From the IMG/VR virus record IMGVR_UViG_3300005805_000374, positions 1 to 27,451 of that record: a DNA stretch of 27,451 nt. One strand, 5' to 3'. Each line of letters begins with the position of its first letter. The first letter of the stretch is position 1. Origin of the DNA: a virus. Lineage: Duplodnaviria; Caudoviricetes. A model generated the notes under the pieces. It saw only the letters and a list, made by a program, of their open reading frames with translations. It did not search any database and was not told where the DNA came from. The position numbers and the translations under genes were made by a program. This document shows, piece by piece, positions 2,566 through 25,596 of the stretch.

Positions 2566-4326
2566 ATGGTAAGCAAATTATATGACGGCTCATCATGGAA
2601 AAACCTTAATGGATTAAAGCTTTATAGTGGTTCTGATTGGAAAAATGCCGTTAGAGGCTGGTCATGGGATGGATCAAATTGGAAGCAATGGTATCCAGAA
2701 TATCCAGTAAATACGGCGGCGCCAACAGTATCTGGAACTGCAACTCAAGGAAACACTTTATCAACTACAAATGGCTCATGGAATTCAAATCTAGCATACT
2801 CTCCAGCATCATATTCATATCAATGGCGTAGAGGCTCATCTGATATATCTGGAGCAACAAGCTCAACATACGCAACCGTTTTAGCAGATGTAGGAAATGC
2901 AATATCTTGTAGAGTAACTGCAACAAATAATAGAGGGTCCACACCAGTAATATCAAGTAATTCTATTACAGTCACAAGCGCTTTACCTGGAGCTCCAAGT
3001 AATTTAACTTTTTCAAATAATACTGTAACCCCAGGAACATTTAGTGTTTCGACATCAAGCTCTGCTGCTACTACGGCAAGTGGTAGCTGGACGGCAGCAT
3101 CTAGCGCCACATCTTATTCGGCATCAACAAGCTTAGGATCAATATCAGCAGATACTGGAACAAGAACATTTTCTATTACTGGAGGAACAAGCGGATCATC
3201 CTATACAGTTACAATAACCGCTTTTAACAGTTCTGGTATTGTGGGGTTAAGCTGGACGGCAGGATCAAACGCAACATCGTATGACATTTATGTAAATGGA
3301 TCCTATTGGACTAACACCGCCAGCACCTCAGCTACTTATAATTGGGGAACAACTGGAAGTATTACTTTTAATGTTAGATCTAGAAATGCGGCGGGTGCAG
3401 AAACAACAGGAGTTACAAATACTGCTAGTATTTCTGCTGCATCTAGATCCGCTCAAGCAAGCAGCACATTTTATGCTGTAATTCCTACAATTTCTGGAGT
3501 TACAAATTCAAATGTAACTAGCAATTCAGCAACAATTAGCTGGAGTTCAACAAATCAAAGTTCTTATTCTATAAGTGGATTGCCTTCAGGATATACTGGA
3601 GGAACATCAACTTCTGTAAATGTAAGTGGATTATCTGGAAGCACATTCTATAATCCCACTGTGACAGTAACTTCTTCGACAGGACAAACAGCTAGCGGCT
3701 CAACTTCATTTACTACTTTAGTAACTCCGATAATTCCAACAGTATTTAATGTTGCAAACGCCCAAGGAACTGTACCTTCAACAACAAGAATTGTAAGTTG
3801 GGATTCTACAAATCAAGCATCGTATGTAATTAACTTATATACATCTGGAGGAAGTTTTGTTACTAGCCTCTCTGCAACATCAACATCCGCCAGATCACGA
3901 CAGTTTAGCGGATTAACTGCTGGCGCATCATATTATGCTACAGTTACAATTACTTCTAGTACTGGAAATAGTGTTACTTCTGGACAAACTTCTTGGACTA
4001 TGCCAGGTGGAGGAACGGCTCCTTCTTCACCAACTATTACTTCTTGGACATTTAGCTCAGGACCAAGCTGGAGCGGCTCATTTACTGGAAGCTCTTCTGG
4101 AAGCACTCCAATAACCTACTATTATGAACACTGGTGTGCTCAAAATAGTAGCGGAACAAGCGCTACTTTTGTAACTAGTGGAAATGTATCCTCATCTTCT
4201 ACTGGAGGAACTTTTAACGTAGGTCCATTTAATAATGGAGGAACAGGTTTTGTTTGGGGACAACTCAGAGTATACGCTTCAAATAGCGTAGGAAATTCAA
4301 GTACGGTGACAAGCTCATGGGTCTAA
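2566..4326 (+). CDS. Ser/Thr-rich Ig-like/fibronectin type III repeat virion protein (fibre or adhesin)
   Basis: N-terminal YDGSSWK/WDGSNWK motifs, an Ig-like unit (PVNTAAPTVSG...YSYQWRR...ISCRVTATN), and FN3-like units (ATISWSS...SGLSGSTFY; SGLTAGASYYATV). Confidence 0.75.
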   Translation: MVSKLYDGSSWKNLNGLKLYSGSDWKNAVRGWSWDGSNWKQWYPEYPVNTAAPTVSGTATQGNTLSTTNGSWNSNLAYSPASYSYQWRRGSSDISGATSSTYATVLADVGNAISCRVTATNNRGSTPVISSNSITVTSALPGAPSNLTFSNNTVTPGTFSVSTSSSAATTASGSWTAASSATSYSASTSLGSISADTGTRTFSITGGTSGSSYTVTITAFNSSGIVGLSWTAGSNATSYDIYVNGSYWTNTASTSATYNWGTTGSITFNVRSRNAAGAETTGVTNTASISAASRSAQASSTFYAVIPTISGVTNSNVTSNSATISWSSTNQSSYSISGLPSGYTGGTSTSVNVSGLSGSTFYNPTVTVTSSTGQTASGSTSFTTLVTPIIPTVFNVANAQGTVPSTTRIVSWDSTNQASYVINLYTSGGSFVTSLSATSTSARSRQFSGLTAGASYYATVTITSSTGNSVTSGQTSWTMPGGGTAPSSPTITSWTFSSGPSWSGSFTGSSSGSTPITYYYEHWCAQNSSGTSATFVTSGNVSSSSTGGTFNVGPFNNGGTGFVWGQLRVYASNSVGNSSTVTSSWV

Positions 4327-8652: not shown

Positions 8653-9972
8653 ATGAATATTGAAAAGTCTCTATGGTCATCTAATGGCGATAATATCAAT
8701 TTATCTGTGCCGTTCACAAAAGTCAATCGTGAAAAGCGCACAGTTTCTGGATTTGCAACTCTAGACAATCTTGATCAAACAGGAGATGTCGTAACAGCAG
8801 AAGCAAGTCTAAAAGCATTTGAATCTTTCCGAGGCAATATCAGAGAGATGCACGGAAGTAATGCTGTTGGTAAAATGGTTTCATTTAAACCAGAAACATA
8901 TTTCGATGCAAAGACTGGCGAATTTTTTAACGGAGTTTATGTAGACGCATACATTTCCAAAGGCGCACAAGATACATGGGAAAAAGTTTTGGACGGAACC
9001 CTACAAGGATTTTCAATCGGCGGAAAGATTATAGATTCAGAGAACGAAGTTAATAAGTCAACAGGTAAACCAGTAAGATTTATTAAAGAGTATGCTCTTA
9101 TGGAGCTATCTGTAGTAGATTCTCCAGCAAATGAACTTTGCAACATTTTGTCTATTCAGAAAATGAACGGTCAGTTAATGTTCAAAGGTATTGCAGCAGA
9201 GACAAAAACAGAAAACATTTTTTATTGTGAAGATAGTGATTCTGTATTCATGTCAACAGATGCAGAATACACATCACCAGTTTCTGGAAAGCCCGCAACT
9301 TTAATTGGTTGGGTAGAATCAAATGATACAAACAAAGCAAAGGAAATAAATAGAATTCTTGATTTGCACAAAAAGTCAAGATTAACGTTGCCTGATACAA
9401 ACACAATTGCAAAACAGGCAAACGCAGAAGGAGGTAATGAAGTGTCAGAAAACACAGAAAATGCAGTAGTTGAAGAAACTCCTGCAGTTGAAGAAGCAGC
9501 ACCTGCTGAAGTAGCAGCTGTTGAAGAGTCAGCTCCTGCCGAAGAGGCAGCACCAGCTGAAGACGCTTCTGCCGAAACTCTGGAAAAAGCAGCCGACGTA
9601 TCAGAAGTTATGGTTGATGAACCTGATTTTGCAAAGATGCTTGGCGATCTAAAAGGCTTTTTCTCAGAAACTCTAAATAAGGCATCAGAAGCAAATGCTG
9701 CTCAAGTTACAGCTATTAAAGATACAGTTGAAACTTTCAGCAAGAGCGTTGATGGACGTATTTCAGAATTGGCAGAACAACATGCAGCACTTTCAAAGGC
9801 TGTACAAGATATCAAGAGCACGATTGATGGCGTAGAAAAGCGTGTCGTAGCGGTAGAATCAGAGACCGCAATTAAGAAGTCCTCAGACCTTGGCGGGTCT
9901 CAGGAAGTAACAATAAAGAAATCAAAATGGAACGGTTCTTTCCTCGGTTCCGTGAATGAACTTTTAAAATAA
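8653..9972 (+). CDS. Prohead (capsid maturation) protease fused to scaffold domain
   Basis: HK97-type protease motifs IREMH, GFSIGG and ELSVVDSPAN, then an acidic Glu/Ala/Pro linker and coiled coil. Confidence 0.88.
   Translation: MNIEKSLWSSNGDNINLSVPFTKVNREKRTVSGFATLDNLDQTGDVVTAEASLKAFESFRGNIREMHGSNAVGKMVSFKPETYFDAKTGEFFNGVYVDAYISKGAQDTWEKVLDGTLQGFSIGGKIIDSENEVNKSTGKPVRFIKEYALMELSVVDSPANELCNILSIQKMNGQLMFKGIAAETKTENIFYCEDSDSVFMSTDAEYTSPVSGKPATLIGWVESNDTNKAKEINRILDLHKKSRLTLPDTNTIAKQANAEGGNEVSENTENAVVEETPAVEEAAPAEVAAVEESAPAEEAAPAEDASAETLEKAADVSEVMVDEPDFAKMLGDLKGFFSETLNKASEANAAQVTAIKDTVETFSKSVDGRISELAEQHAALSKAVQDIKSTIDGVEKRVVAVESETAIKKSSDLGGSQEVTIKKSKWNGSFLGSVNELLK
9442..9972 (+). CDS. Nested in-frame scaffold protein (internal GTG start, 176 aa)
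   Basis: Perfect SD AAGGAGGT (9428-9435) 6 nt before an in-frame GTG at 9442, exactly where the acidic/coiled-coil region begins. Confidence 0.7.
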   Translation: MSENTENAVVEETPAVEEAAPAEVAAVEESAPAEEAAPAEDASAETLEKAADVSEVMVDEPDFAKMLGDLKGFFSETLNKASEANAAQVTAIKDTVETFSKSVDGRISELAEQHAALSKAVQDIKSTIDGVEKRVVAVESETAIKKSSDLGGSQEVTIKKSKWNGSFLGSVNELLK

Positions 9973-11116: not shown

Positions 11117-11719
11117 ATGGAAAGATACAGATTACGCTCACGTTGGGTAAAAATGCTGTCTCGTTGTGAAGATGAAGATTATCCGCAGTATAAAGATTAC
11201 GGTGGAAGAGGAATTAAAGTTTGTAAAGATTGGCACGACTTTAATAAATTTTATATTTGGTGCATCAATAATGGCGTACAGCCAGAACTATTTCTTGATA
11301 GGATAGATAATGAGGGAGACTATAAACCCTCAAATTGTAGATTTGTTACAAGGAAAGAGAATAATAACAATAAATCAAACAATACATACCTAAATGCTTT
11401 TGAAGAACAAAAAACATTGAGTCAGTGGGTAGATGATAAAAGATGTAAGGTTGAATATGCTACCCTGCAAAAAAGACTTAGATTAGGTTGGGATCCTGAA
11501 GACGCCCTTACTATTGTTGCGGGAGATGGAGGAAGGTCGTATAAACCTAAAAAAAATTCTAAATTCTATAAAGCCTTTGGAGAGTCTAAAACCCTATTTC
11601 AATGGTCTAAAGATGAACGCTGCAAGCCTTCATATAAGATGTTATGGCAGCGTATTGAGCAGCTTGGCTGGCATATAGAAGATGCTATAGAAATTCCTAC
11701 TAAGACCCTTTCCAAATAA
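11117..11719 (+). CDS. Free-standing HNH-type (putative homing) endonuclease with duplicated C-terminal domain
   Basis: W..M..RC, YGGRGIKVCKDW and LDRIDNEGDYKPSNCRFVT motifs typical of this phage family. Two ~39-aa repeats AF.E.KTL.QW..D.RCK..Y..L..R...GW..EDA. Confidence 0.8.
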   Translation: MERYRLRSRWVKMLSRCEDEDYPQYKDYGGRGIKVCKDWHDFNKFYIWCINNGVQPELFLDRIDNEGDYKPSNCRFVTRKENNNNKSNNTYLNAFEEQKTLSQWVDDKRCKVEYATLQKRLRLGWDPEDALTIVAGDGGRSYKPKKNSKFYKAFGESKTLFQWSKDERCKPSYKMLWQRIEQLGWHIEDAIEIPTKTLSK

Positions 11720-15804: not shown

Positions 15805-16137
15805 TTGGCTACTACAGTATACGACGTAGAAGATATAAAACTACAAAATGGATCAACTGTTCAGTTGAGACCACTATCAATTAAACAGCTGAGAAAATTT
15901 ATGGCTGTAATGAATAAAGCTTCTGAATCAACTACAGAAGATCAATCACTAACCGTTTTGATTGATGCTTGTGCAATTGCTTTAGAAACACAACTTCCAG
16001 ATCTTGTTAAAGACAAGGACAAATTAGAGGAAGCTCTTGATGTTCCTACAATTAATAGAATTCTTGAAGTCTGTGGGGGAATTAAACTTGATGACCCAAA
16101 CCTAGTGGCGGCGGCGGTTCTGGCTGGTCAGAACTAG
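15805..16137 (+). CDS. Tail assembly chaperone (gpG analogue)
   Basis: TTG start with strong SD, located between major tail and TMP, contains the slippery site. Confidence 0.85.
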   Translation: MATTVYDVEDIKLQNGSTVQLRPLSIKQLRKFMAVMNKASESTTEDQSLTVLIDACAIALETQLPDLVKDKDKLEEALDVPTINRILEVCGGIKLDDPNLVAAAVLAGQN

Positions 16138-16477: not shown

Positions 16478-19400
16478 ATGGCTGACGAAAAAATAGTAAC
16501 TAGTATAGTTGCTAATTCAGATTTTTCAAATCTCATTGCAGATGTGCAACGAGTTACAGCCAGCCTTTCTAGATTGCAGCAAGAATTTGCTGGATCAAAT
16601 AGGTCACTCGCTGGACAGATTGATGCGACTAACGCAATGTTTTCTGAGACAATGCGTAAGACGGGACAATTTTCTACACACTTCGTCAGCCTGACATCCG
16701 ATGTAGAAAAATTTGGAAGAAATCTAGACAGCGGAAGATTAAAGCTTAGAGATTATTTTAGAGTATATCAAGATCATACAAGAACAACAGGCGGACTTAT
16801 AAGAGACTTGGCTAAACAACAAGTCCAATTACAAAATGCTGTACTTCAACCCCTAGGCAGAAATGCTCAGGGGTTGATGCAATACAATGTTCATATTCCA
16901 AGAGGATTAGATTTAACAAAAAATAAGACTTCTATATTAAAACAAGAGCTTCAAATAATGAACAAGGTAATTCAGGATGGTGGAGTTCAACTTATTAACT
17001 GGGGTAAAAATACTCAATGGGCAGGTCGTCAGTTAACAGTAGGATTAACATTACCATTAGTGGCATTCGGCAAAGCGGCAGCAGATGCATTTAAAGTTGC
17101 AGATCAAGAACTAACTCGTTTAACTAAGGTTTATGGAGATATTGCAGGAACATCTGCACAAGAATTAGGACAAATTAGAAAAGAAGTTTCTGCTACAGCT
17201 AAAGAACTATCAGCAGCAATGGGCGTTAATTTTACAGAAACAATTGGTCTCGCCGCTGATATTGCTGCTACTGGTAAAACTGGAAATGAGCTTTTATCAT
17301 CTGTTTCTGAAACAACTCGCTTAGCAGTACTTGGTGAAGTAGATAGACAAGAAGCCATGAAGGCTACTCTTGCTATTCAGTCAGCATTTAAACAGAACAC
17401 TGAAGAATTAGCAGAAACAATTAACTTCTTAAACGCAGTTGAAAACCAAACATCTACAACTTTGAATGATTTAGTTACTGCTATTCCAAAAGCAGGACCA
17501 GTTATTAAGGGATTGGGTGGCAGCGTACAAGATTTGGCTTTATATCTTACTGCTATGCGTGAGGGCGGAATTAATGCAACAGAAGGAGCAAATGCTTTAA
17601 AATCTGCATTAGCGTCTTTAATTAATCCAACAGATGTTGCTGTTAAAAGATTTCAAGGTTTTGGAATAGATCTTTTAGGCATTGTTCAAAAAAATGCAGG
17701 AAGTACAACAGATACTTTATTTGCACTACAAGCTGCTTTAGATAATTTAAATCCATTACAAAAACAACAAGCAATTGAGCAGCTGTTTGGAAAATTCCAG
17801 TATTCAAGATTAAATGCTCTATTTGAAAATCTAGGAAAACAAGGTAGTCAGACCTTACAAGTATTAGACTTGATGAAAGCAAGCGCAGGCGAACTAGAAG
17901 CTGTGGCTGGTCGAGAGTTAGCAGCAGTAACTGAGTCGGCTGCTGGAAGATATAAGAGAGCGGTAGAAACATTAAAGGCGGAATTAGCTGGGGTCGGAGA
18001 TCAATTTTTAAATATTGGAACCAAACTTGTAAATGTTCTTAGTAAAATAATTGAATTTGCACAAAAACTACCAGATCCAATTAAAAAGATAATGGCTTTT
18101 GGCGGAGCCTTTACAGCAATTATTGGTCCAATAATTATGCTTACTGGTGTTCTTGCAAACTTTTTTGGTTACATTATTAAAGGACTTGGACATTTTAAAG
18201 CTCTATTTAAAGGGGCAGAAGGATTTAAATTATTAACGCCAGAAATTATGGCGGCAAAAGCGGCAGGCTCACAGCTTGCTAATGAATTTTATAGCGATGC
18301 ATTAGCAGCGGATACACTAAGAATAGCAATAGAAAAGCTAAACAATGATTTAGTTTTATTACAAAAAAATGCTTTAGGAATTTCTAAACCTGGATCAACA
18401 ACAGGGCAATTAATTTCAACTATTGCTGGAACCCCTTTGATGGCAGTCGGCGGCGGAGCAAGAGTAACAGATCCAAATCATCCACTAGTAGGCACACAAT
18501 CAAGAGCGTCGGCACATTTAAATCCAAGAGATCCAAATAATCCATCATCTATATTTGGTTTAACACTACAACCAATTCCATTAAATAGAAAGATTGGTAG
18601 AACTCCTCAAGTTATGATGACAGAGGCACTGCCAAATATTGAAGGAGTTACTTCTCATCAAGGATATTCAACTGGAGTTGTAGCTGGTGAGCATGCAAGA
18701 TATGCAGCTCTTATGGCTACCCTCGGCGTTCAGAGCAGACAAGAAATTGAAGCATTAAAGAAAACAATTGCTTTAGGTGGACAAGTATCAAGTGAATTTA
18801 TTGCTACATTTGATGATATCCTTCCAATTACTCAGAGATTAACTCAAAATGCCGCAACTCAATCTGCTTCAATTGTTGCACAATTAAGAGCTGGCCAGCT
18901 AAGCGCAGAGCAGGCACGAGCAGCAATCATTGCAGTAAATGCAGATCTTGAAAGAATGATGGGCTCAGAAATTAGCCTTTATGCCGCATCAAGAGGCAGA
19001 ACAATTGATTTATCAAAAGCTCCATTAATTAATCAGCCAGTTGTAGATGCATCAGGAAAACCAAATACTCGTGGCATGTTCCGACAAGGAATATTCAGCG
19101 ACGTAATGAGTGCAGTTGGTCGTGCAACAGGAACAAGAACTTTTGGCGGACCGTATAGTATTGAAACAACAACGCCTTCTGGATTAATAATTCCAAGAAG
19201 AAATGCAGGCGGACCAATATTTTATAATAATGGAGATCAAGTACCAGGACCAAATATCAATGCAGATGTAGTTCCTGCAATGCTTACTCCTGGAGAATTT
19301 GTAATTCGTAGAGATGTCGCACAGCAAGATCCGAATGGAATGAGAGCTCTTAATGAAGGAAGAGCAATGATTATTCCTACATTTAATAGAGGCGGTAAAA

Positions 19401-22400
19401 TCCCAGGAATTCAGTATAGAAATACTGGTAACGGCATACATAGATCTCCTATAAGGCTACAAAGGACACATATTACAGATGATTTAAGCGGACTTGCTTT
19501 ATTGCTTCCAGACTGGGTAAATCAGGGAATTAATTCTCGCAATAATGGACTTACTGGTGCTGCGATAGCAAGCGGAATAAAACAAGTATTAGACGAAGGC
19601 AATGTTTCTAATAGGTACAGACCAAACGATTTATTAGTGGAGGCTACAAGAACATTAGGAGGCGATGTAGGACAAGCGCAAAGAAGATCGAATGTCGCGT
19701 TACAGCAATTAATAAATACGCTAGAAAGTGAAGAGTATAGGAGCCGTACTATAGGTGGAAGAAGTAATCCATTTGGATTTGAAAGACTTGCCAGAGACAT
19801 ATATCGGCCAGCTTTAAGAGGAATTAGAGTTGATCCTTCAAGAACTGGTGGATCCACCAGAAATTTATTCTCTGCGCTTTCACAAATTTTTACAAATAGA
19901 GCTCAAGGTAGGATGACTGAAGATGAAGCTATATCACGTGGATTAACTAGCGGAGAGAAAACTGGCTCTAGATCTCTTGGACAAATTGTAACTAGAAAAG
20001 ATGGAAGAAAAGCTTGGGTTAGAGCTGAGACTACGATTGGATCCTCTATGCCATTATGGGCTAGAAGAACAAATCTAAGTTCGCTTCTAACAACAGCTAG
20101 AGGAATGAGCTCTGCTTTGTCTGTGATTAAAAGAAATCGCGGCGGAAGTGTTCCAGGATATGTAAGGGGCGGCGGAATTGTAAGGTCTGGAAGAATAGCT
20201 TACGGAGATAATTTTGATTATCGAAGAACTCCATTTGGAATGGGATTTACAGGAATTCCTCAAGCACAAGGAATCCAGCCAATATCTACTCCTCCAAAAC
20301 AAATAGGAATGCTTGCTGGATCTTTGATATCTATGGGAGGGTTTTACGGAGGGTCAGCCCTAGGTTCAAGATTTGGTCAAACTGGTTCAATGGTTGGAGG
20401 ACTTCTAGGAAGTATGCTATTGCCATCTTTGATGGGCGGAATGGGTGGAATGCGTGGACAAACTGATCCTGCTATATATGCAGAAAAATTAAACAAATCA
20501 ATGTTAGCAAATAAAGCTTGGGCACAGTCAGCAGCAATGTCTGCACAACAAGGAAGTAAGTGGGGCAGAATACTAACTGGTCTAATTGGCGGAATAACAA
20601 AAACTAATTTAATTATTGGTGCTGGCGTTGTGGCAGTAACTGCAGGATATAAAGCTTGGCAAAACTATAATGAAACTCAAAGATTAAGCGCTGCAGCATT
20701 TGGCATGACCGCAGATTCTGCACAAAAAGCAGGACTTAAATTTACTGATTATGGTAAAAAAATAAAAGATGCAATTGCAGCACAAAAGCTACTTATTGAT
20801 CAAAATATGATGACATATGAGAGCTTGCAATCTGCTGGTACTCCATTTAAGATGACAATTGAAGAGTATAAAAAGCTTCGTAAAGAATTAAAAGAAACGA
20901 TGGCTGAACAGATTAAGGTTATTAATGCCACCAGCCGCCCAGATGCCGCAAGAGTTGCAGTTCAATTAAAAGAGCAGCTTATGGCTGCTGGGGAATCTGC
21001 AGAAGAAGCAGCCAAAAAAGTATATACTTTATTTAATTTGTCTAATAAATCAGGAATGTCGGCTGGCGTACTGAATACAGAGGCCTTTAAAAAAATAACT
21101 GATGCTCAATCTGCCGCAGTTAGCGCAGTAGGATCATTTAATTACGCAAAAGCTTTTGAAAACAGTAGAGACGCAGCCGCCGCATTGAATACAGCTTTGA
21201 TGGCCATCAATAATGGAATAGATGATTTAGTTAGTAAAACAGAAAAGGCGGCTAAAAAGAAGGGCCAAGATTTTAATGAAACTGCTGCAAGATATGAAGC
21301 GGAAAAAAAGCAGTTAGACTCTATTGCAAGCAAGGTAAAGAATCAAGAAGAAATAGGTAAAGGAGTTTTAGATCAGCTTAAAAAACAAAATCCAGAAGTA
21401 GAAAAATTTGTTACTGCTCAAGATACAGCAGTTAGCGTATTTCAGAAGCTAAGATTAGTTGCTAGAGGATTTACTGGAGATTTGTTAGATATGAATGCTC
21501 AGCAAGTAGATGCTATTTATAAGCTACAAATAGCAACTGCTCAAGCTGTTGAAACAGTAAATAAAGAAGGATTATTGGCAAAAGAATATGAAGCTTATAA
21601 TAAACTTAAAAAACAAAGAGACGATTTAGCAAAAGCTACAAAGGGCCAAAGCGTACAAGAACAAATTGACATAAGAGAAAGATTAAAGGCTCTTGATAAA
21701 GAAATAAAAAGAATTAATGATAAGGCGGAAGCAAAAAAGAAAGCATTACGTGAAGAAGCCCAAGCTGAAGACATGGCTCTTCGTATCCAGCAACAGCAAC
21801 TTGAGTATGAAAAAGCCGTAGCCTCTGGAGATTTTGGCGGGGCAGCATCAGCACAATTAGAGCTTAAGCAGTTATTAAATGAACAACAGGTCATATTAAC
21901 TGAGCAGCAAATAGAAGAACGTAGATTAAAAGATGTAAGGCCACTTGAGCGTGAAAGAGAAAAAATTCAGGAGGCACAAGAAAAGCTTGGAGATAAAGCC
22001 GCTCTTGCTGCTGAAAGTTTAGACTCTGTAAATAAAAGACTTGAAAAGCAAAAAGAAAAAATTGATAATGTAAATACCGCAATGACTTCATTGCAAGTTG
22101 CTTTAAAATTAAATGCAAATAATATAGAAGAGTTTAAAACAACAAAAGAGTTTAAAGGTCTTGCTGCAGATTTAGTCGATGCAGTAAGAGAAGCAGGAAT
22201 AGTTACTCCTAACACAAACCTGCCAGATGTACGTAACGGACAGCTTGTAGATAATATAGGCCAGCAGGCTTTAGACCTTCTTTCAAAATATGGATCTGGA
22301 ATAGATACTATTGTTGCAGATCAAGGGCTAACTGTAAATGCTACTGGAGACATAGTTGTTAATGGAAAATCAGTAAGCACATCTACAGATACTGTTGGGG

Positions 22401-25147
22401 GCAAAAAAACTCCACATAAGATTACAGATCCTTCACCAGATCGTCGTTATGAAACTAAAGACGGAGTGTTAACAGATAAAGCAAGAGGAGAAATAGTAGA
22501 TACTTTTAAATTCAGTAGAAATGAATATTTTGAGTATCAGGGTAAAGTTTATAGAGTTACTGGATCCAAAATGACTAACACTAGAGCTATTTTACAAAAA
22601 GCCGACGGCGGAAAAGTGTCAGGCCCAGGAACTGGAACATCTGATTCTATTCCAGCATATCTTTCAAATGGAGAATATGTAATTCGTGCCTCATCTGTAA
22701 ATAAATACGGTAAAGAATTTTTTGATGGATTAAATGCACAGAAATTTAAAGAAGGCGGATCAATTGATAAATCTAATAGAAACGGAGCAGTTTATCCATA
22801 TAATAAAACAAGTATTATAGACGCAACTGGCTCAAAGCTTCCTATTAGAAAACCTGGATACAAGATTGAAGCTCCAAAAAGAGAAGATTTTAATAATGAA
22901 AAAGAATATTATGACGCTATAAGAAAATGGCAGATTGATTCTACATATGTAACTACTCCAGAAAAAGAATATGGTATAGATAAGATTACTTCTCCAATGG
23001 GATCACTCAGAAGATTTATGGAAATTGCAAGAAGTCAAATTGGTGCAGGACATAGCTATGATTTACAATCACCCGTAACTAAAGACAGACCTCTAAACGC
23101 TAATAAATATAGTATTTGGGCAAACGATATCTATAAACTTGGCTCAGATGTATTGCAATGGTGTGGTGCTTTTGTTGCATGGGTGGCAGCAAATTCTGGC
23201 GTTAAAGTTTCAGATAAAATGTTTAGTGCTTTTCAAGCAACAAAAGATTACAAAAAACAAGGACTGTTTAAAGATTCAGCAATGAAAGATCTTAAGATGG
23301 GAGATCTTGTATGGTTTGACAGCAGTAGCGAAGAATATAATCCAAAAGGAGTTCCCGATCATGCAGCAATAGTTTCTGCCGTAAGAAAAAACGAGATTAA
23401 CGCAATAGGATCTTTTGGCATAGGATCGGTTGACAACTATCCATTCCCTAAAAAAAATCTTTTTGGATCAGTAAGGCCCAATTTTACAAGTTTTGCTAAA
23501 GGCGGAATAGTCAAAGGATTTAAAGATGGCGGAGCCCCTCATGAAATGGGAATGCGTAATCAAGTTCCAGCTAAAAAATTAAATTGGTTCCAGAGATATG
23601 TAAATAATTTAACAGAGGTTCAAGATCAGGCTGCTAGCATGCTTGGAATAGGAGAGGCATTACCAGTAGGCTCATTACTTAGAAAGATTGCTGGACAAGG
23701 AAGAAAGGGTGATACTCTAAGCGCTGCATTACTACCACTTAACTTTACTGGATTAGGACTTGGCTCAAAAATTGGAGCGGTAGGAAAAGGAATATCTTCT
23801 GGAGCTTCTATAGCAAAAGTATTTGCAAAACAAGCGTATGGTAATGTTTTAAATAGAATGCCAGGAACAATTGGTTTAAGAACAAAATATCATGGAGGAC
23901 CATCTGAAATTCCAAGTGGTGGATTTACAAAACAAGATTTGCGTGGATGGAATTTCCCAGGAACATATTTAACAGACGACCCAATCACTGCAGCACAATA
24001 TGGAGCAACAGCATCTAAAAATTTAGGAAGGTATACTCCAGGCTCTACATATCAATTTGCAGTAAAACCAGGTGAAAAAGTTTCAATTCTGAATTTATCC
24101 AAAAAAGCTTCCTCAGATCTTAAATCTAATTTAATAAATGTTATAAATTCAACAGATGGAATAACCGACGAATCTAAAAATCTTGTAATAAATGCTATTA
24201 AAAATGCTAAAACAATGGATGAAGCAATATTGGCCGCCAGGTCAGTAAGGTTTGACGTCAACGACTTAAATAAATTTTCTGAAATGTCACAGTCTTTTAA
24301 GTCAAAAATTTTTGAAGTATCTGGAATAACAAACGAATCTATTGATTTAATTAAAAATTTTAGATCAAGATCAACTTTAGAGAGATTGGCAGAGTTAAGA
24401 AGATCTGTTAATGAAAAGCCAGGGCTAGGCGGCTTAAGTACAGAGGATGACTTAAATCAATGGATTATAACAAATATGTCTAAATTTGTTTCTAAGGAAA
24501 GCCCAACAAATATTGATAACTTATTTGGAGCAACCCCAAGGCTTCAGTCAGCGATTAATAGATATGGACTATTAGAAAATTCTGTTGGACCCTACATAGC
24601 ACAACAAAGTCTTGGAAATTGGACAACTTTTATAAAAGAAATTATTAAAAATAGAAGAAATCCAGGCTCAGTCCCAGCCAACGAATTGTCTGATTGGATT
24701 GATCATCTGCTTCCTAACCTTGGAAAATATGCCCAAAATAAAAACAGCTTTAGCATATTTAGTCGTTTGACTGGAAGTAAACATCCATACGATTATGGCT
24801 TTAGTGATACATTGATGGCACAAGGCGGATATGTAAATCCTTCCTATTCATCAAATATGTCAATGCCATCATATAAGACTGGCGTGAAATACCTTTATGA
24901 TGATACAATAGCACAGTTGCATAAAGGCGAAGCAGTAATTCCAGAGAATATGAATCCTTGGAATCCTAATTCAAATAGCTCAATAGGGGGAACAACATAT
25001 TATATCCAGCCAACTATTAATGCCGCTCCTGGAATGGATGAAAATGCTTTAGCCAATTTAACAGCACAAAAAGTTCATAATATATTTAAAGAAAAAGAAG
25101 TAAAGGCTGGAAGAAATAGAGTGTACTCTGGAGGAGGAACAATATAA
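16478..25147 (+). CDS. Tape measure protein (2889 aa) with embedded CHAP-like and ADP-ribosyltransferase-like domains
   Basis: TP901-type core (NAVENQTSTTLNDLVTAIPKAGPV), hydrophobic segments, long coiled coils, position after the chaperones. QWCGAFVAWV...DHAAIV (CHAP-like) and YHGG...GTYLTDD...AAQY (ART-like). Confidence 0.93.
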   Translation: MADEKIVTSIVANSDFSNLIADVQRVTASLSRLQQEFAGSNRSLAGQIDATNAMFSETMRKTGQFSTHFVSLTSDVEKFGRNLDSGRLKLRDYFRVYQDHTRTTGGLIRDLAKQQVQLQNAVLQPLGRNAQGLMQYNVHIPRGLDLTKNKTSILKQELQIMNKVIQDGGVQLINWGKNTQWAGRQLTVGLTLPLVAFGKAAADAFKVADQELTRLTKVYGDIAGTSAQELGQIRKEVSATAKELSAAMGVNFTETIGLAADIAATGKTGNELLSSVSETTRLAVLGEVDRQEAMKATLAIQSAFKQNTEELAETINFLNAVENQTSTTLNDLVTAIPKAGPVIKGLGGSVQDLALYLTAMREGGINATEGANALKSALASLINPTDVAVKRFQGFGIDLLGIVQKNAGSTTDTLFALQAALDNLNPLQKQQAIEQLFGKFQYSRLNALFENLGKQGSQTLQVLDLMKASAGELEAVAGRELAAVTESAAGRYKRAVETLKAELAGVGDQFLNIGTKLVNVLSKIIEFAQKLPDPIKKIMAFGGAFTAIIGPIIMLTGVLANFFGYIIKGLGHFKALFKGAEGFKLLTPEIMAAKAAGSQLANEFYSDALAADTLRIAIEKLNNDLVLLQKNALGISKPGSTTGQLISTIAGTPLMAVGGGARVTDPNHPLVGTQSRASAHLNPRDPNNPSSIFGLTLQPIPLNRKIGRTPQVMMTEALPNIEGVTSHQGYSTGVVAGEHARYAALMATLGVQSRQEIEALKKTIALGGQVSSEFIATFDDILPITQRLTQNAATQSASIVAQLRAGQLSAEQARAAIIAVNADLERMMGSEISLYAASRGRTIDLSKAPLINQPVVDASGKPNTRGMFRQGIFSDVMSAVGRATGTRTFGGPYSIETTTPSGLIIPRRNAGGPIFYNNGDQVPGPNINADVVPAMLTPGEFVIRRDVAQQDPNGMRALNEGRAMIIPTFNRGGKIPGIQYRNTGNGIHRSPIRLQRTHITDDLSGLALLLPDWVNQGINSRNNGLTGAAIASGIKQVLDEGNVSNRYRPNDLLVEATRTLGGDVGQAQRRSNVALQQLINTLESEEYRSRTIGGRSNPFGFERLARDIYRPALRGIRVDPSRTGGSTRNLFSALSQIFTNRAQGRMTEDEAISRGLTSGEKTGSRSLGQIVTRKDGRKAWVRAETTIGSSMPLWARRTNLSSLLTTARGMSSALSVIKRNRGGSVPGYVRGGGIVRSGRIAYGDNFDYRRTPFGMGFTGIPQAQGIQPISTPPKQIGMLAGSLISMGGFYGGSALGSRFGQTGSMVGGLLGSMLLPSLMGGMGGMRGQTDPAIYAEKLNKSMLANKAWAQSAAMSAQQGSKWGRILTGLIGGITKTNLIIGAGVVAVTAGYKAWQNYNETQRLSAAAFGMTADSAQKAGLKFTDYGKKIKDAIAAQKLLIDQNMMTYESLQSAGTPFKMTIEEYKKLRKELKETMAEQIKVINATSRPDAARVAVQLKEQLMAAGESAEEAAKKVYTLFNLSNKSGMSAGVLNTEAFKKITDAQSAAVSAVGSFNYAKAFENSRDAAAALNTALMAINNGIDDLVSKTEKAAKKKGQDFNETAARYEAEKKQLDSIASKVKNQEEIGKGVLDQLKKQNPEVEKFVTAQDTAVSVFQKLRLVARGFTGDLLDMNAQQVDAIYKLQIATAQAVETVNKEGLLAKEYEAYNKLKKQRDDLAKATKGQSVQEQIDIRERLKALDKEIKRINDKAEAKKKALREEAQAEDMALRIQQQQLEYEKAVASGDFGGAASAQLELKQLLNEQQVILTEQQIEERRLKDVRPLEREREKIQEAQEKLGDKAALAAESLDSVNKRLEKQKEKIDNVNTAMTSLQVALKLNANNIEEFKTTKEFKGLAADLVDAVREAGIVTPNTNLPDVRNGQLVDNIGQQALDLLSKYGSGIDTIVADQGLTVNATGDIVVNGKSVSTSTDTVGGKKTPHKITDPSPDRRYETKDGVLTDKARGEIVDTFKFSRNEYFEYQGKVYRVTGSKMTNTRAILQKADGGKVSGPGTGTSDSIPAYLSNGEYVIRASSVNKYGKEFFDGLNAQKFKEGGSIDKSNRNGAVYPYNKTSIIDATGSKLPIRKPGYKIEAPKREDFNNEKEYYDAIRKWQIDSTYVTTPEKEYGIDKITSPMGSLRRFMEIARSQIGAGHSYDLQSPVTKDRPLNANKYSIWANDIYKLGSDVLQWCGAFVAWVAANSGVKVSDKMFSAFQATKDYKKQGLFKDSAMKDLKMGDLVWFDSSSEEYNPKGVPDHAAIVSAVRKNEINAIGSFGIGSVDNYPFPKKNLFGSVRPNFTSFAKGGIVKGFKDGGAPHEMGMRNQVPAKKLNWFQRYVNNLTEVQDQAASMLGIGEALPVGSLLRKIAGQGRKGDTLSAALLPLNFTGLGLGSKIGAVGKGISSGASIAKVFAKQAYGNVLNRMPGTIGLRTKYHGGPSEIPSGGFTKQDLRGWNFPGTYLTDDPITAAQYGATASKNLGRYTPGSTYQFAVKPGEKVSILNLSKKASSDLKSNLINVINSTDGITDESKNLVINAIKNAKTMDEAILAARSVRFDVNDLNKFSEMSQSFKSKIFEVSGITNESIDLIKNFRSRSTLERLAELRRSVNEKPGLGGLSTEDDLNQWIITNMSKFVSKESPTNIDNLFGATPRLQSAINRYGLLENSVGPYIAQQSLGNWTTFIKEIIKNRRNPGSVPANELSDWIDHLLPNLGKYAQNKNSFSIFSRLTGSKHPYDYGFSDTLMAQGGYVNPSYSSNMSMPSYKTGVKYLYDDTIAQLHKGEAVIPENMNPWNPNSNSSIGGTTYYIQPTINAAPGMDENALANLTAQKVHNIFKEKEVKAGRNRVYSGGGTI

Positions 25148-25596
25148 TGGCATCATCAACAACATATTTGCCTAGAGGAGTCTTGCTTCAAATAGAAACT
25201 CAGACCACCCCCACTTCAGTATTCACATCTATTACAGAGCACAATAGAGCGCCTATAGAGGTATCAACAAATAGATTTGAGCAAACAGTAAGAATGGCAA
25301 ATGGAACACTAAGAAAATTTTTTGTAGCAGATAAAAAACAGTTCTCTATATCTTGGAGAACCCTTCCAGCGACAACTTCATATACTACTGATGGATATTG
25401 GGGAGCAAAGAATCTAATTGATTTTTATGATAGCTCCGCAGGACAAGGAACATTTAGAATTAAATTAAACTATGCCCAAGAAGGATCTGAGTCATTTACT
25501 ACATATACTGTAAATTGCACATCCTTTAGCTCAACACTAGTAAAACGTGGTGTTGTAGCACATTGGGATATTTCTATGACATTGGAAGAAGTATAA
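25147..25596 (+). CDS. Distal tail (Dit-like) minor tail protein
   Basis: 149 aa right after the TMP (TAATG coupling). RMANGTLRKFFVADK.F.ISW and a terminal WDISMTLEEV. Confidence 0.65.
   Translation: MASSTTYLPRGVLLQIETQTTPTSVFTSITEHNRAPIEVSTNRFEQTVRMANGTLRKFFVADKKQFSISWRTLPATTSYTTDGYWGAKNLIDFYDSSAGQGTFRIKLNYAQEGSESFTTYTVNCTSFSSTLVKRGVVAHWDISMTLEEV

Follow-up and report, generated by a model that had tools for sequence, protein, structure and literature searches.

Why should the tape measure protein (TMP) of a tailed phage, the ruler of its tail, be punctuated by copies of one short glycine-rich peptide, and what are the segments enclosed by these copies? The question is raised by a 27,451-nucleotide (nt) stretch of viral DNA (positions 1 to 27,451 of the IMG/VR record IMGVR_UViG_3300005805_000374, Caudoviricetes; "the window" always means this whole stretch), which belongs to a phage group abundant in lakes (about 1,800 IMG/VR stretches estimated) and holds a TMP gene of 2,889 codons. 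A first-pass annotation, made by a model from the letters, had described this TMP as a cargo-carrying polyprotein punctuated by xxxGG motifs and had read the motifs as processing sites and/or swap points that release a variable set of effectors at injection. Our analysis describes a siphophage TMP with three inserts bracketed by an exchange peptide, x-[A/N]-x-G-G. The peptide stands at the insert edges, inserts are exchanged there, and it matches the cut site of the T5 TMP pb2; on balance, we favor the view that it also marks cuts made during tail assembly that would free the inserts. Along the protein the order is scaffold 1, unit 1, insert 1, tandem joint, scaffold 2, unit 2, insert 2, tandem joint, insert 3, terminal unit, and tip segment, as follows (aa, amino acid residues):

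16478..25147, plus strand: TMP gene, 2,889 aa, with a Pfam PhageMin_Tail domain and homologues among Streptomyces phage TMPs.
16478..19198, plus strand: scaffold 1 (aa 1-907), the conserved N-terminal ruler, motif-free, with 61-98% identity to the ten relatives checked.
19199..19432, plus strand: joint 1, a GG...GE unit with the core LTPGEF at aa 936 and motifs at aa 908, 916, 969, and 981.
19430..20131, plus strand: insert 1 (aa 985-1218), a predicted mostly helical domain of a fast-diverging slot-1 family.
20132..20173, plus strand: joint 2, tandem RNRGG / YVRGG, 9 aa apart.
20174..22597, plus strand: scaffold 2 (aa 1233-2040), a Gly-rich hydrophobic start followed by a charged coiled-coil-like ruler.
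22598..22759, plus strand: joint 3, a GG...GE unit reading KADGG...LSNGEY...FKEGG.
22760..23491, plus strand: insert 2 (aa 2095-2338), a putative CHAP-like peptidoglycan hydrolase.
23492..23533, plus strand: joint 4, tandem FAKGG / FKDGG, 9 aa apart.
23534..24814, plus strand: insert 3 (aa 2353-2779), a leader of ~85 aa followed by a domain with YHGG...GTYLT...AAQY.
24815..24967, plus strand: joint 5, the terminal unit MAQGG...YKTGV...LHKGE, counterpart of the C-terminal unit of lambda gpH and T5 pb2.
24968..25147, plus strand: C-terminal segment that, judging from solved siphophage tips, would anchor the TMP in the tail tip; PHROG TMP match.

The nine xxxGG motifs and two variants listed by the first-pass annotation were all recovered, including the two pairs spaced 9 aa apart, and the nine account for 9 of the 28 GG dipeptides of this TMP beyond residue 850. 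A regular expression fitted to them after the fact found 9 matches where 0.44 were expected. Relatives were drawn from the best 80 of 596 confirmed IMG/VR loci; together with the window these gave 81 TMPs, of which 59 were kept after removal of those shorter than 1,000 aa and of exact duplicates. A seed matrix trained on the relatives only, with the window and its closest relative (L001) excluded, recovered the motifs far above chance, with 6 matches of at least 10 bits in the window TMP after residue 880 and none before it (mean 0.09, maximum 1 in 300 shuffles). The iterated matrix gave 8 matches of at least 9 bits against 0.14 in shuffles, at residues 908, 916, 969, 981, 1219, 1228, 2041, and 2339, the site at 916 being an addition to the first list. 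Weaker sites are 2780 (6.5 bits, 10.2 with the seed matrix) and FKEGG at 2090 (5.4 bits), and both FKDGG (2348) and YKTGV (2799) score below 4 bits. Across the 59 TMPs, 362 matches fell in the 72,314 aa after residue 850 and 2 in the 50,150 aa before it, a contrast that is partly circular, because the matrix was trained on C-terminal regions. The motif has the consensus [K/R/G]-[Y/F/M/R/L/K]-[N/A]-x-G-G-x-[V/I] and frequently forms tandem runs of 8-9 aa (of 189 short spacings, 87 have one of these two lengths). The zero-insert counts of three relatives (L022, L044, and L065), where motifs were probably missed, were not used.

At the DNA level, the best match between joints was 76% over 38 nt, in the GE core, which favors selection on the peptide plus ordinary recombination over a site-specific system. 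A recombination site or repeat in the DNA was considered and rejected, the short motifs forming no family among the 20 shown of 40 repeat families.

The motifs occur in two settings, either opening and closing a ~50-aa unit with an invariant Glu, the GG...GE unit, or standing alone or in tandem between domains. Three subtypes of the unit were distinguished, L[S/T][N/P]GE[F/Y], VGExGPE, and LH[K/R]xE. Residues 2780-2830 of the window TMP form a C-terminal GG...GE unit, as in processed TMPs of the lambda/T5 type. Among 50,697 records of cultured phages, 1,162 matched the unit, and of 40 rows taken at points along the ranking 34 bear the label tape measure. The unit of joint 3 matches the TMPs of Douge (two copies) and JBD30 among PDB sequences. 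The GG...GE unit is common in ordinary TMPs and not peculiar to the window phage.

The three bracketed segments are separately inherited units, and alignment of related TMPs bore out the proposal that the motifs are swap points, with similarity breaking at the motifs and differing cargo between them. The window and L001 are 98% identical over their first 880 aa, and their DNA is ~96% identical as far as nt ~19430, where the RNTG variant ends, and unrelated beyond; this places the fork at the RNTG motif, ~130 nt downstream of the GE core. All 14 starts of high-identity alignments lay at most 11 residues from a motif, and 70 of 133 alignment ends lay within 15 aa of one, against 21 expected (maximum 35 in 2,000 draws), with many of the remaining ends inside unit 1. 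In many relatives similarity resumes at query residues 1216-1222, at joint 2. Among 47 slot-1 inserts (1,081 pairs), those in backbones at least 85% identical were less than 30% identical in 36 of 40 pairs; conversely, pairs with inserts at least 50% identical had backbones of at most 74% identity in 10 of 12 cases. Relative L046 has a backbone 64% identical to that of the window TMP, and its slot-1 insert is 59% identical to insert 1 of the window; for L069 and L070 the insert identity is 45%. Insert 2 is common to the window and L063 (49% identity). Insert 3 has homologues of 35-40% identity in TMPs of other subfamilies (N terminus 35% identical) and in another slot, motif-bounded in P0001 (2071-2493) and P0003 (1256-1605) and with looser bounds in P0002. 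Two considerations reduce the force of these counts: alignment ends are not independent of one another and conserved motifs draw them, and part of the slot-1 variation is, by sequence comparison, divergence within a family, the slot-1 clusters being often joined by profile links into diverged members of a few families alongside unrelated ones. Taken over protein, DNA, and population (the contigs described below), relatives exchange, gain, and lose inserts at the motif.

Are the joints also cut? We lean toward cutting at some or all of them, because the same peptide, in the same unit, holds the mapped cut of T5 pb2. In T5, cleavage after R1127 was mapped by mass spectrometry (Linares et al. 2023, PMC10038345), and pb2 matures to pb2* and a 92-aa pb2C, wall-degrading activity being ascribed to the freed piece (PMC10038345). 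A profile of 12 lake-phage units aligned to pb2 residues 1125-1164, where it reads R1127-A-E-G-G (E 1.4e-5 against pb2 alone), and the iterated, relatives-only matrix placed pb2 1127 first of 1,209 windows (6.7 bits, the next at -0.3). The fragment after 1127 is 92 aa, as published. With the alignment in register, the T5 cut falls after the first motif residue. Lambda gpH carries a unit FATGG...HRGEF...YATGG near its C terminus, opened by F733-ATGG; a cut after F733 would leave 12.5 kDa, and the reported C-terminal fragment is ~14 kDa (PMC12617516).

The time of cutting can be considered by the same analogy. Lambda gpH is cut, into gpH* and gpHC, after tail assembly and before head joining, and a 2025 paper states that cleavage site and catalysis are not known (PMC12617516). 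Cutting in the window phage would probably also take place at tail assembly and not by a head protease, and the release at injection proposed by the first-pass annotation found no support. The prohead protease at 8653-9972 (Pfam Peptidase_S78), which had been suggested as the cutter, is disfavored, since lambda gpH is cut before tails join heads. The claim that the motifs are processing sites has real support, though of an indirect kind, in the presence of the same motif and unit at the T5 cut.

Several observations speak against cutting. For the window phage and its family the case derives from a single mapped site, in T5, whose PDB-wide E-value is 0.71 (with E-values up to 5 admitted, the 12-unit profile found 6 PDB sequences, of which five are C termini of TMPs and no single one is significant). 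Its 6.7 bits lie below the calling threshold of 8, the seed matrix puts pb2 1127 second (3.8 against 5.3 bits), and pb2 has just 5 GG dipeptides. The residue before the T5 cut is Arg, and the first motif residue is highly variable in the family, being Arg in only 45 of 362 motifs. In lambda the top-scoring motif is Y778 (7.7 kDa fragment) and not F733, and 12.5 kDa fits ~14 kDa only roughly. Finally, P23-45 virions keep their RNA polymerase cargo in a full-size TMP (bioRxiv 2022.12.01.518664), so cargo need not be cut.

Some of these facts lend weight to an explanation that we judge somewhat unlikely, namely that the motifs are uncut structural joints, hinges or register/folding units. Each insert would be stretched out in the tail lumen and, once ejected, would fold again without leaving the TMP channel to which it is joined, the recombination points would be a by-product of the sole conserved patches, and at most the terminal copy would be cut. 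The full-length P23-45 cargo and the variable first residue agree with this, as does the resemblance of the tandem 8-9-aa runs to linker repeats. Cut TMPs have been demonstrated only for T5 and lambda (PMC12617516), cleavage being merely inferred for DT57C and phiTE (PMC10713586, PMC11972413) and guessed at R1066 with a peptide-cutter program in the JBD30 paper, and "cleav" has 0 occurrences in the available passages of the Douge paper. On the other side, the only TMP cut to have been mapped falls on the motif, in register; the motif is conserved as one specific peptide in phages as far apart as those of lakes and T5, lambda, JBD30, and Douge; and it holds [A/N] and [V/I] at fixed offsets, for which a plain hinge has no need.

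T5 pb2 (L084:8122-11781) has a single His in residues 1128-1219, within the GE unit, in G-E-H-G-T-E, which we infer to be the "metallopeptidase motif" of the T5 paper. The corresponding position is N, R, or K in 11 of the 12 lake-phage units of that subtype, found with the search pattern used, and His in none; conservation of the T5 "metallopeptidase motif" thus does not extend to these units.

What do the inserts encode? By profile, insert 2 is a predicted CHAP-like peptidoglycan hydrolase. Pfam CHAP matches at 25.3 bits, just below the cut-off of 26 (E 2e-5), with Cys2229 and His2295 within the match; a PHROG endolysin family matches at E 2e-8, and the homologous insert of L002 passes the CHAP cut-off at 31.3. 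Insert 3 is likely ADP-ribosyltransferase (ART)-like by its motif, the pattern YHGG...GTYLT...AAQY resembling that of His-type ARTs. HGG is kept in 3 of 4 aligned sequences and TYLT...A..Y in 4 of 4, with the candidate catalytic His missing from the P0001 copy. ESM Atlas neighbors with ART-PolyVal scored 0.88 (12% of members) and 0.79 (92%), all below 0.9 and to be read as leads only. The AlphaFold 2 (AF2) model of insert 3 has a mean predicted local distance difference test (pLDDT) of 52, below 50 in the motif part, no ART fold was among the top fold matches of this low-confidence model, and hhalign gave 0.1% against other ART-like inserts. Insert 1 has a better model (pLDDT 80), whose fold searches gave no fold match (best Z 4.1) and no His-Me fold among the matches. 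It carries RxH in 8 of 11 aligned sequences, as DRGH in L014, in a pattern RxH...W..N that resembles the one of His-Me finger nucleases, unconfirmed and a lead only. Neither profile nor fold confirmed the effector identities of inserts 1 and 3, a point against the reading that we favor. The claim that all three inserts are effectors found no support: insert 2 alone has a family match, insert 3 is ART-like by motif only, and insert 1 lacks a fold match.

Searches beyond these were mostly negative. PDB sequence searches with the insert profiles gave no useful match; word-index homologue searches gave one unannotated fragment for insert 1 and none for insert 3; and IMG/VR pattern scans gave none for inserts 1 and 3 and, for insert 2, two loci, of which one is the L063 contig already described. 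Aligning insert 3 against whole proteins gave a faulty alignment, which was discarded. For the window 23807-24814 part of insert 3, two aligners agreed in placing chain 9k3a_B of the cyanophage A4 pre-ejectosome at the top (E 0.015; Z 6.9, root-mean-square deviation 5.0, 165 aligned, residues 1418-1602), a lead only given the poor model; section 8 of the cyanophage A4 paper gives no function for this region. The ~85-aa leader of insert 3 (window 23534-23797) is common to unrelated inserts, namely L010, L059 twice, and most of 31 library matches, and resembles a pre-toxin linker.

Pfam was scanned with 87 of 93 candidate segments. Relatives' TMPs carry CHAP, LysM, and OmpA domains, and 76 of the 86 scanned segments other than insert 2 of the window had no Pfam match at E<=0.05. 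In the 87 segments and 15 whole TMPs, no Pfam match was found to the polyvalent-protein hallmark families (MPTase, LPD, ART-PolyVal, and MuF). A 3,892-aa TMP (P0020) has as inserts an OmpA-family domain (E 1.7e-18) and a weak ABC1 kinase-like match, at aa 2678-2771 and 3118-3156. Another motif-bounded family (L002:8747-9517, L006:10942-11796, L064, L069, L070, L071, and L074) has RG, RRSSWS, and E-x-E-type residues, with R, SS, and E invariant in 7 of 7 aligned and no Pfam or PDB sequence match; we take this to be the R-S-E ADP-ribosyltransferase pattern.

That the inserts are mostly inert or decaying spacers tuning tail length or surface, their exchange being neutral mosaicism and not effector delivery, is in our view very unlikely. 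Such spacers would agree with the spread of TMP length (2,040 to 3,828 aa in 43 complete TMPs), the many segments without a Pfam match, the loss of the candidate His from the P0001 copy, and the few invariant residues that slot-1 members have in common. They would not be expected to keep the CHAP Cys and His of insert 2, the well-folded globular domain predicted for insert 1, the invariant ART-type residues of the relatives' insert family, or the recurrent wall-binding LysM and OmpA domains.

At the population level, for which contigs only were used, from 8 of 20 listed runs, exchange at the joints was again seen. In run X6, from another study, depth was 44 and 38 on the backbone contigs and 10.6 on insert 1, and a contig departs from the window at nt 20134, at the RNRGG motif, its letters there translating like L001 before its motif. 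One contig of run X5 links 22684 to 23518 without insert 2 (aligned at 90% likeness), and run X7, also from another study, has a single contig on which inserts 2 and 3 stand in tandem (X8 seems to be the same data set). That the mosaic is an artefact of metagenome assembly, different phages having been joined at the conserved unit, is suggested by X1 contigs that end inside each of the three GE units at unequal depths (17, 9.5, 14, and 9.3), but is highly improbable given the single contigs that span tandem joints 2 and 4 in X1 and joint 4 in X2, the tandem in X7, the window/L001 fork ~130 nt beyond the GE core, and the recurrence of the pattern over dozens of independent IMG/VR contigs. The exact combination of blocks in the window could still be a blend of co-occurring strains, because X1 contigs end within every GE unit. 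In X7 and X8, a 144-nt stretch of the insert-3 leader (window 23604-23749) is replaced by a diverged stretch of equal length with flanks at least 98% identical, so exchange also occurs inside inserts.

A possible course of events is as follows. An ancestral C-terminal processing unit of the lambda/T5 type (motif, ~50-aa GE unit, closing motif) would have been duplicated inward, and short tandem copies of the motif, 8-9 aa long, would have spread between domains. Co-infecting phages may recombine in the conserved patches by homologous or microhomology recombination, ordinary recombination being suggested because what is conserved is a peptide and not a DNA site. The cut would follow the first motif residue (x|[A/N]xGG), with recognition from the C-terminal side, and the cutter may be the GE unit itself, through its invariant Glu, or a tail or host protease. 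On ejection of the tail contents the inserts would come free as individual proteins. Peptidoglycan would then be the target of the CHAP piece and host components those of the ART-like and slot-1 pieces, and selection by host range or anti-defence may drive the turnover of these pieces. In a bolder version, which we regard as unlikely, the small GG...GE unit would process itself and be the long-sought cause of TMP cleavage in lambda and T5; lake phages would have multiplied it until the ruler became a polyprotein magazine, cut inside the tail and discharging a variable set of wall hydrolases, ADP-ribosyltransferases, and nuclease-like anti-host proteins before the DNA.

The motif predicts cut sites in laboratory phages: after F733 in lambda, after F1019 in JBD30, and at two internal sites in Douge gp16, near residues 965 and 1413. 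Were these predictions true, one peptide would define TMP processing over more than 1,000 cultured phage records; in this abundant group of lake phages the motif would, moreover, mark the bounds of a large set of uncharacterised proteins delivered by virions, and it would point to a natural route by which phages load proteins into tails.

A tailed-phage virion module makes up the window, with portal, prohead protease, capsid, adaptor, and tail genes followed by the TMP open reading frame (ORF). Identification of the TMP is based on its PhageMin_Tail domain (aa 239-438, E 4e-28, 99 bits against a cut-off of 33), its very long and largely helical ORF, and its site between a tail assembly chaperone (15805-16137, weak PHROG match, E 0.0011) and distal tail genes. 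Its closest cultured relatives are Streptomyces phage TMPs (31-35% identity over 66-75% of the first 900 aa), which makes an actinobacterial host likely. Hydropathy marks a hydrophobic stretch at aa 535-567 of scaffold 1, which has no motif match of at least 7 bits, and another at aa 1369-1387 of scaffold 2, which belongs to one cluster of 43 homologous segments in the 59 TMPs. C-terminal TMP helices are present in the solved tips of Douge, JBD30, and T5 (T5: PMC10038345). By whole-window words, the three runs with half or more of the window are lake-water metagenomes of one study. Directly after the TMP gene lies:

25147..25596, plus strand: conserved next gene, presumed distal-tail-like by position.

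Whatever the insert set, this ORF begins at most 4 nt from the TMP stop in 43 of 43 full-length TMPs listed; the exceptions are short split TMP ORFs, L021 ending at aa 1021 and L062 at aa 1179, in which the following ORF carries on with slot-1-type sequence and the early stop may be a natural split, a frameshift, or an assembly error. Elsewhere in the window, a 200-aa ORF after the capsid gene (11117-11719) matches PHROG HNH endonuclease families (best E 8e-49) and has no Pfam match. Upstream of fibre-like genes and the portal, a family 2 glycosyltransferase (GT2) with a TPR-like end and a collagen-repeat protein (214-1275 and 1283-2563) form a pair for which virion glycosylation is possible.

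How does this TMP compare with known systems? Polymorphic toxins (Rhs, CdiA, and MuF) exchange variable domains at a conserved peptide that can be a cut site, and the window TMP is like them in swapping variable domains at a conserved junction on a conserved carrier. They differ in having one C-terminal tip, where the window TMP has several internal inserts, and there is no adjacent immunity gene here: none was found directly 3' of the TMP gene, where the adjoining next gene leaves no room for one. As to orphan toxin cassettes nearby, 12 other ORFs of the window (4,487 aa), which covers 27 kb of the genome, have no motif match. The polymorphic system of the first-pass annotation found no support in the strict sense of a polymorphic toxin system, given that no immunity gene comes after the TMP gene. 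Polyvalent proteins and MuF fusions are large virion proteins with disparate enzymes, ADP-ribosyltransferases included, that are mosaic among orthologues (Iyer et al. 2017, PMC5512222); here the carrier is the tail ruler ("tape measure" has 0 occurrences in the available text of PMC5512222) and the domains are fenced by a processing-like peptide. Closer in carrier are TM4 gp17, a mycobacteriophage TMP whose motif 3 is an enzyme domain (PMC1796659), and gp96 of Thermus phage P23-45, with an RNA polymerase inside the TMP (bioRxiv 2022.12.01.518664). Like the window TMP, they hold enzymatic cargo within the ruler, delivered on ejection, but no repeated boundary motif or cassette exchange is described in the available parts of these two sources. 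T5 pb2 shares the motif and the GE unit, with its cut after the first motif residue, but has one terminal unit and no swappable inserts, against three in the window TMP; lambda gpH shares the C-terminal unit and is cut during tail assembly (PMC12617516), but has a single unit and no cargo. We found no account of a repeated TMP peptide serving as both cassette joint and cut site, in a search that left subscription journals mostly uncovered and excluded the T5 supplement; a preprint on F-pyocin dealt with a different protein. In conclusion, enzymes inside TMPs, TMP cleavage, and multi-enzyme virion proteins were known before; to these the window TMP adds a swappable cassette architecture built on the TMP processing unit, with cutting likely.

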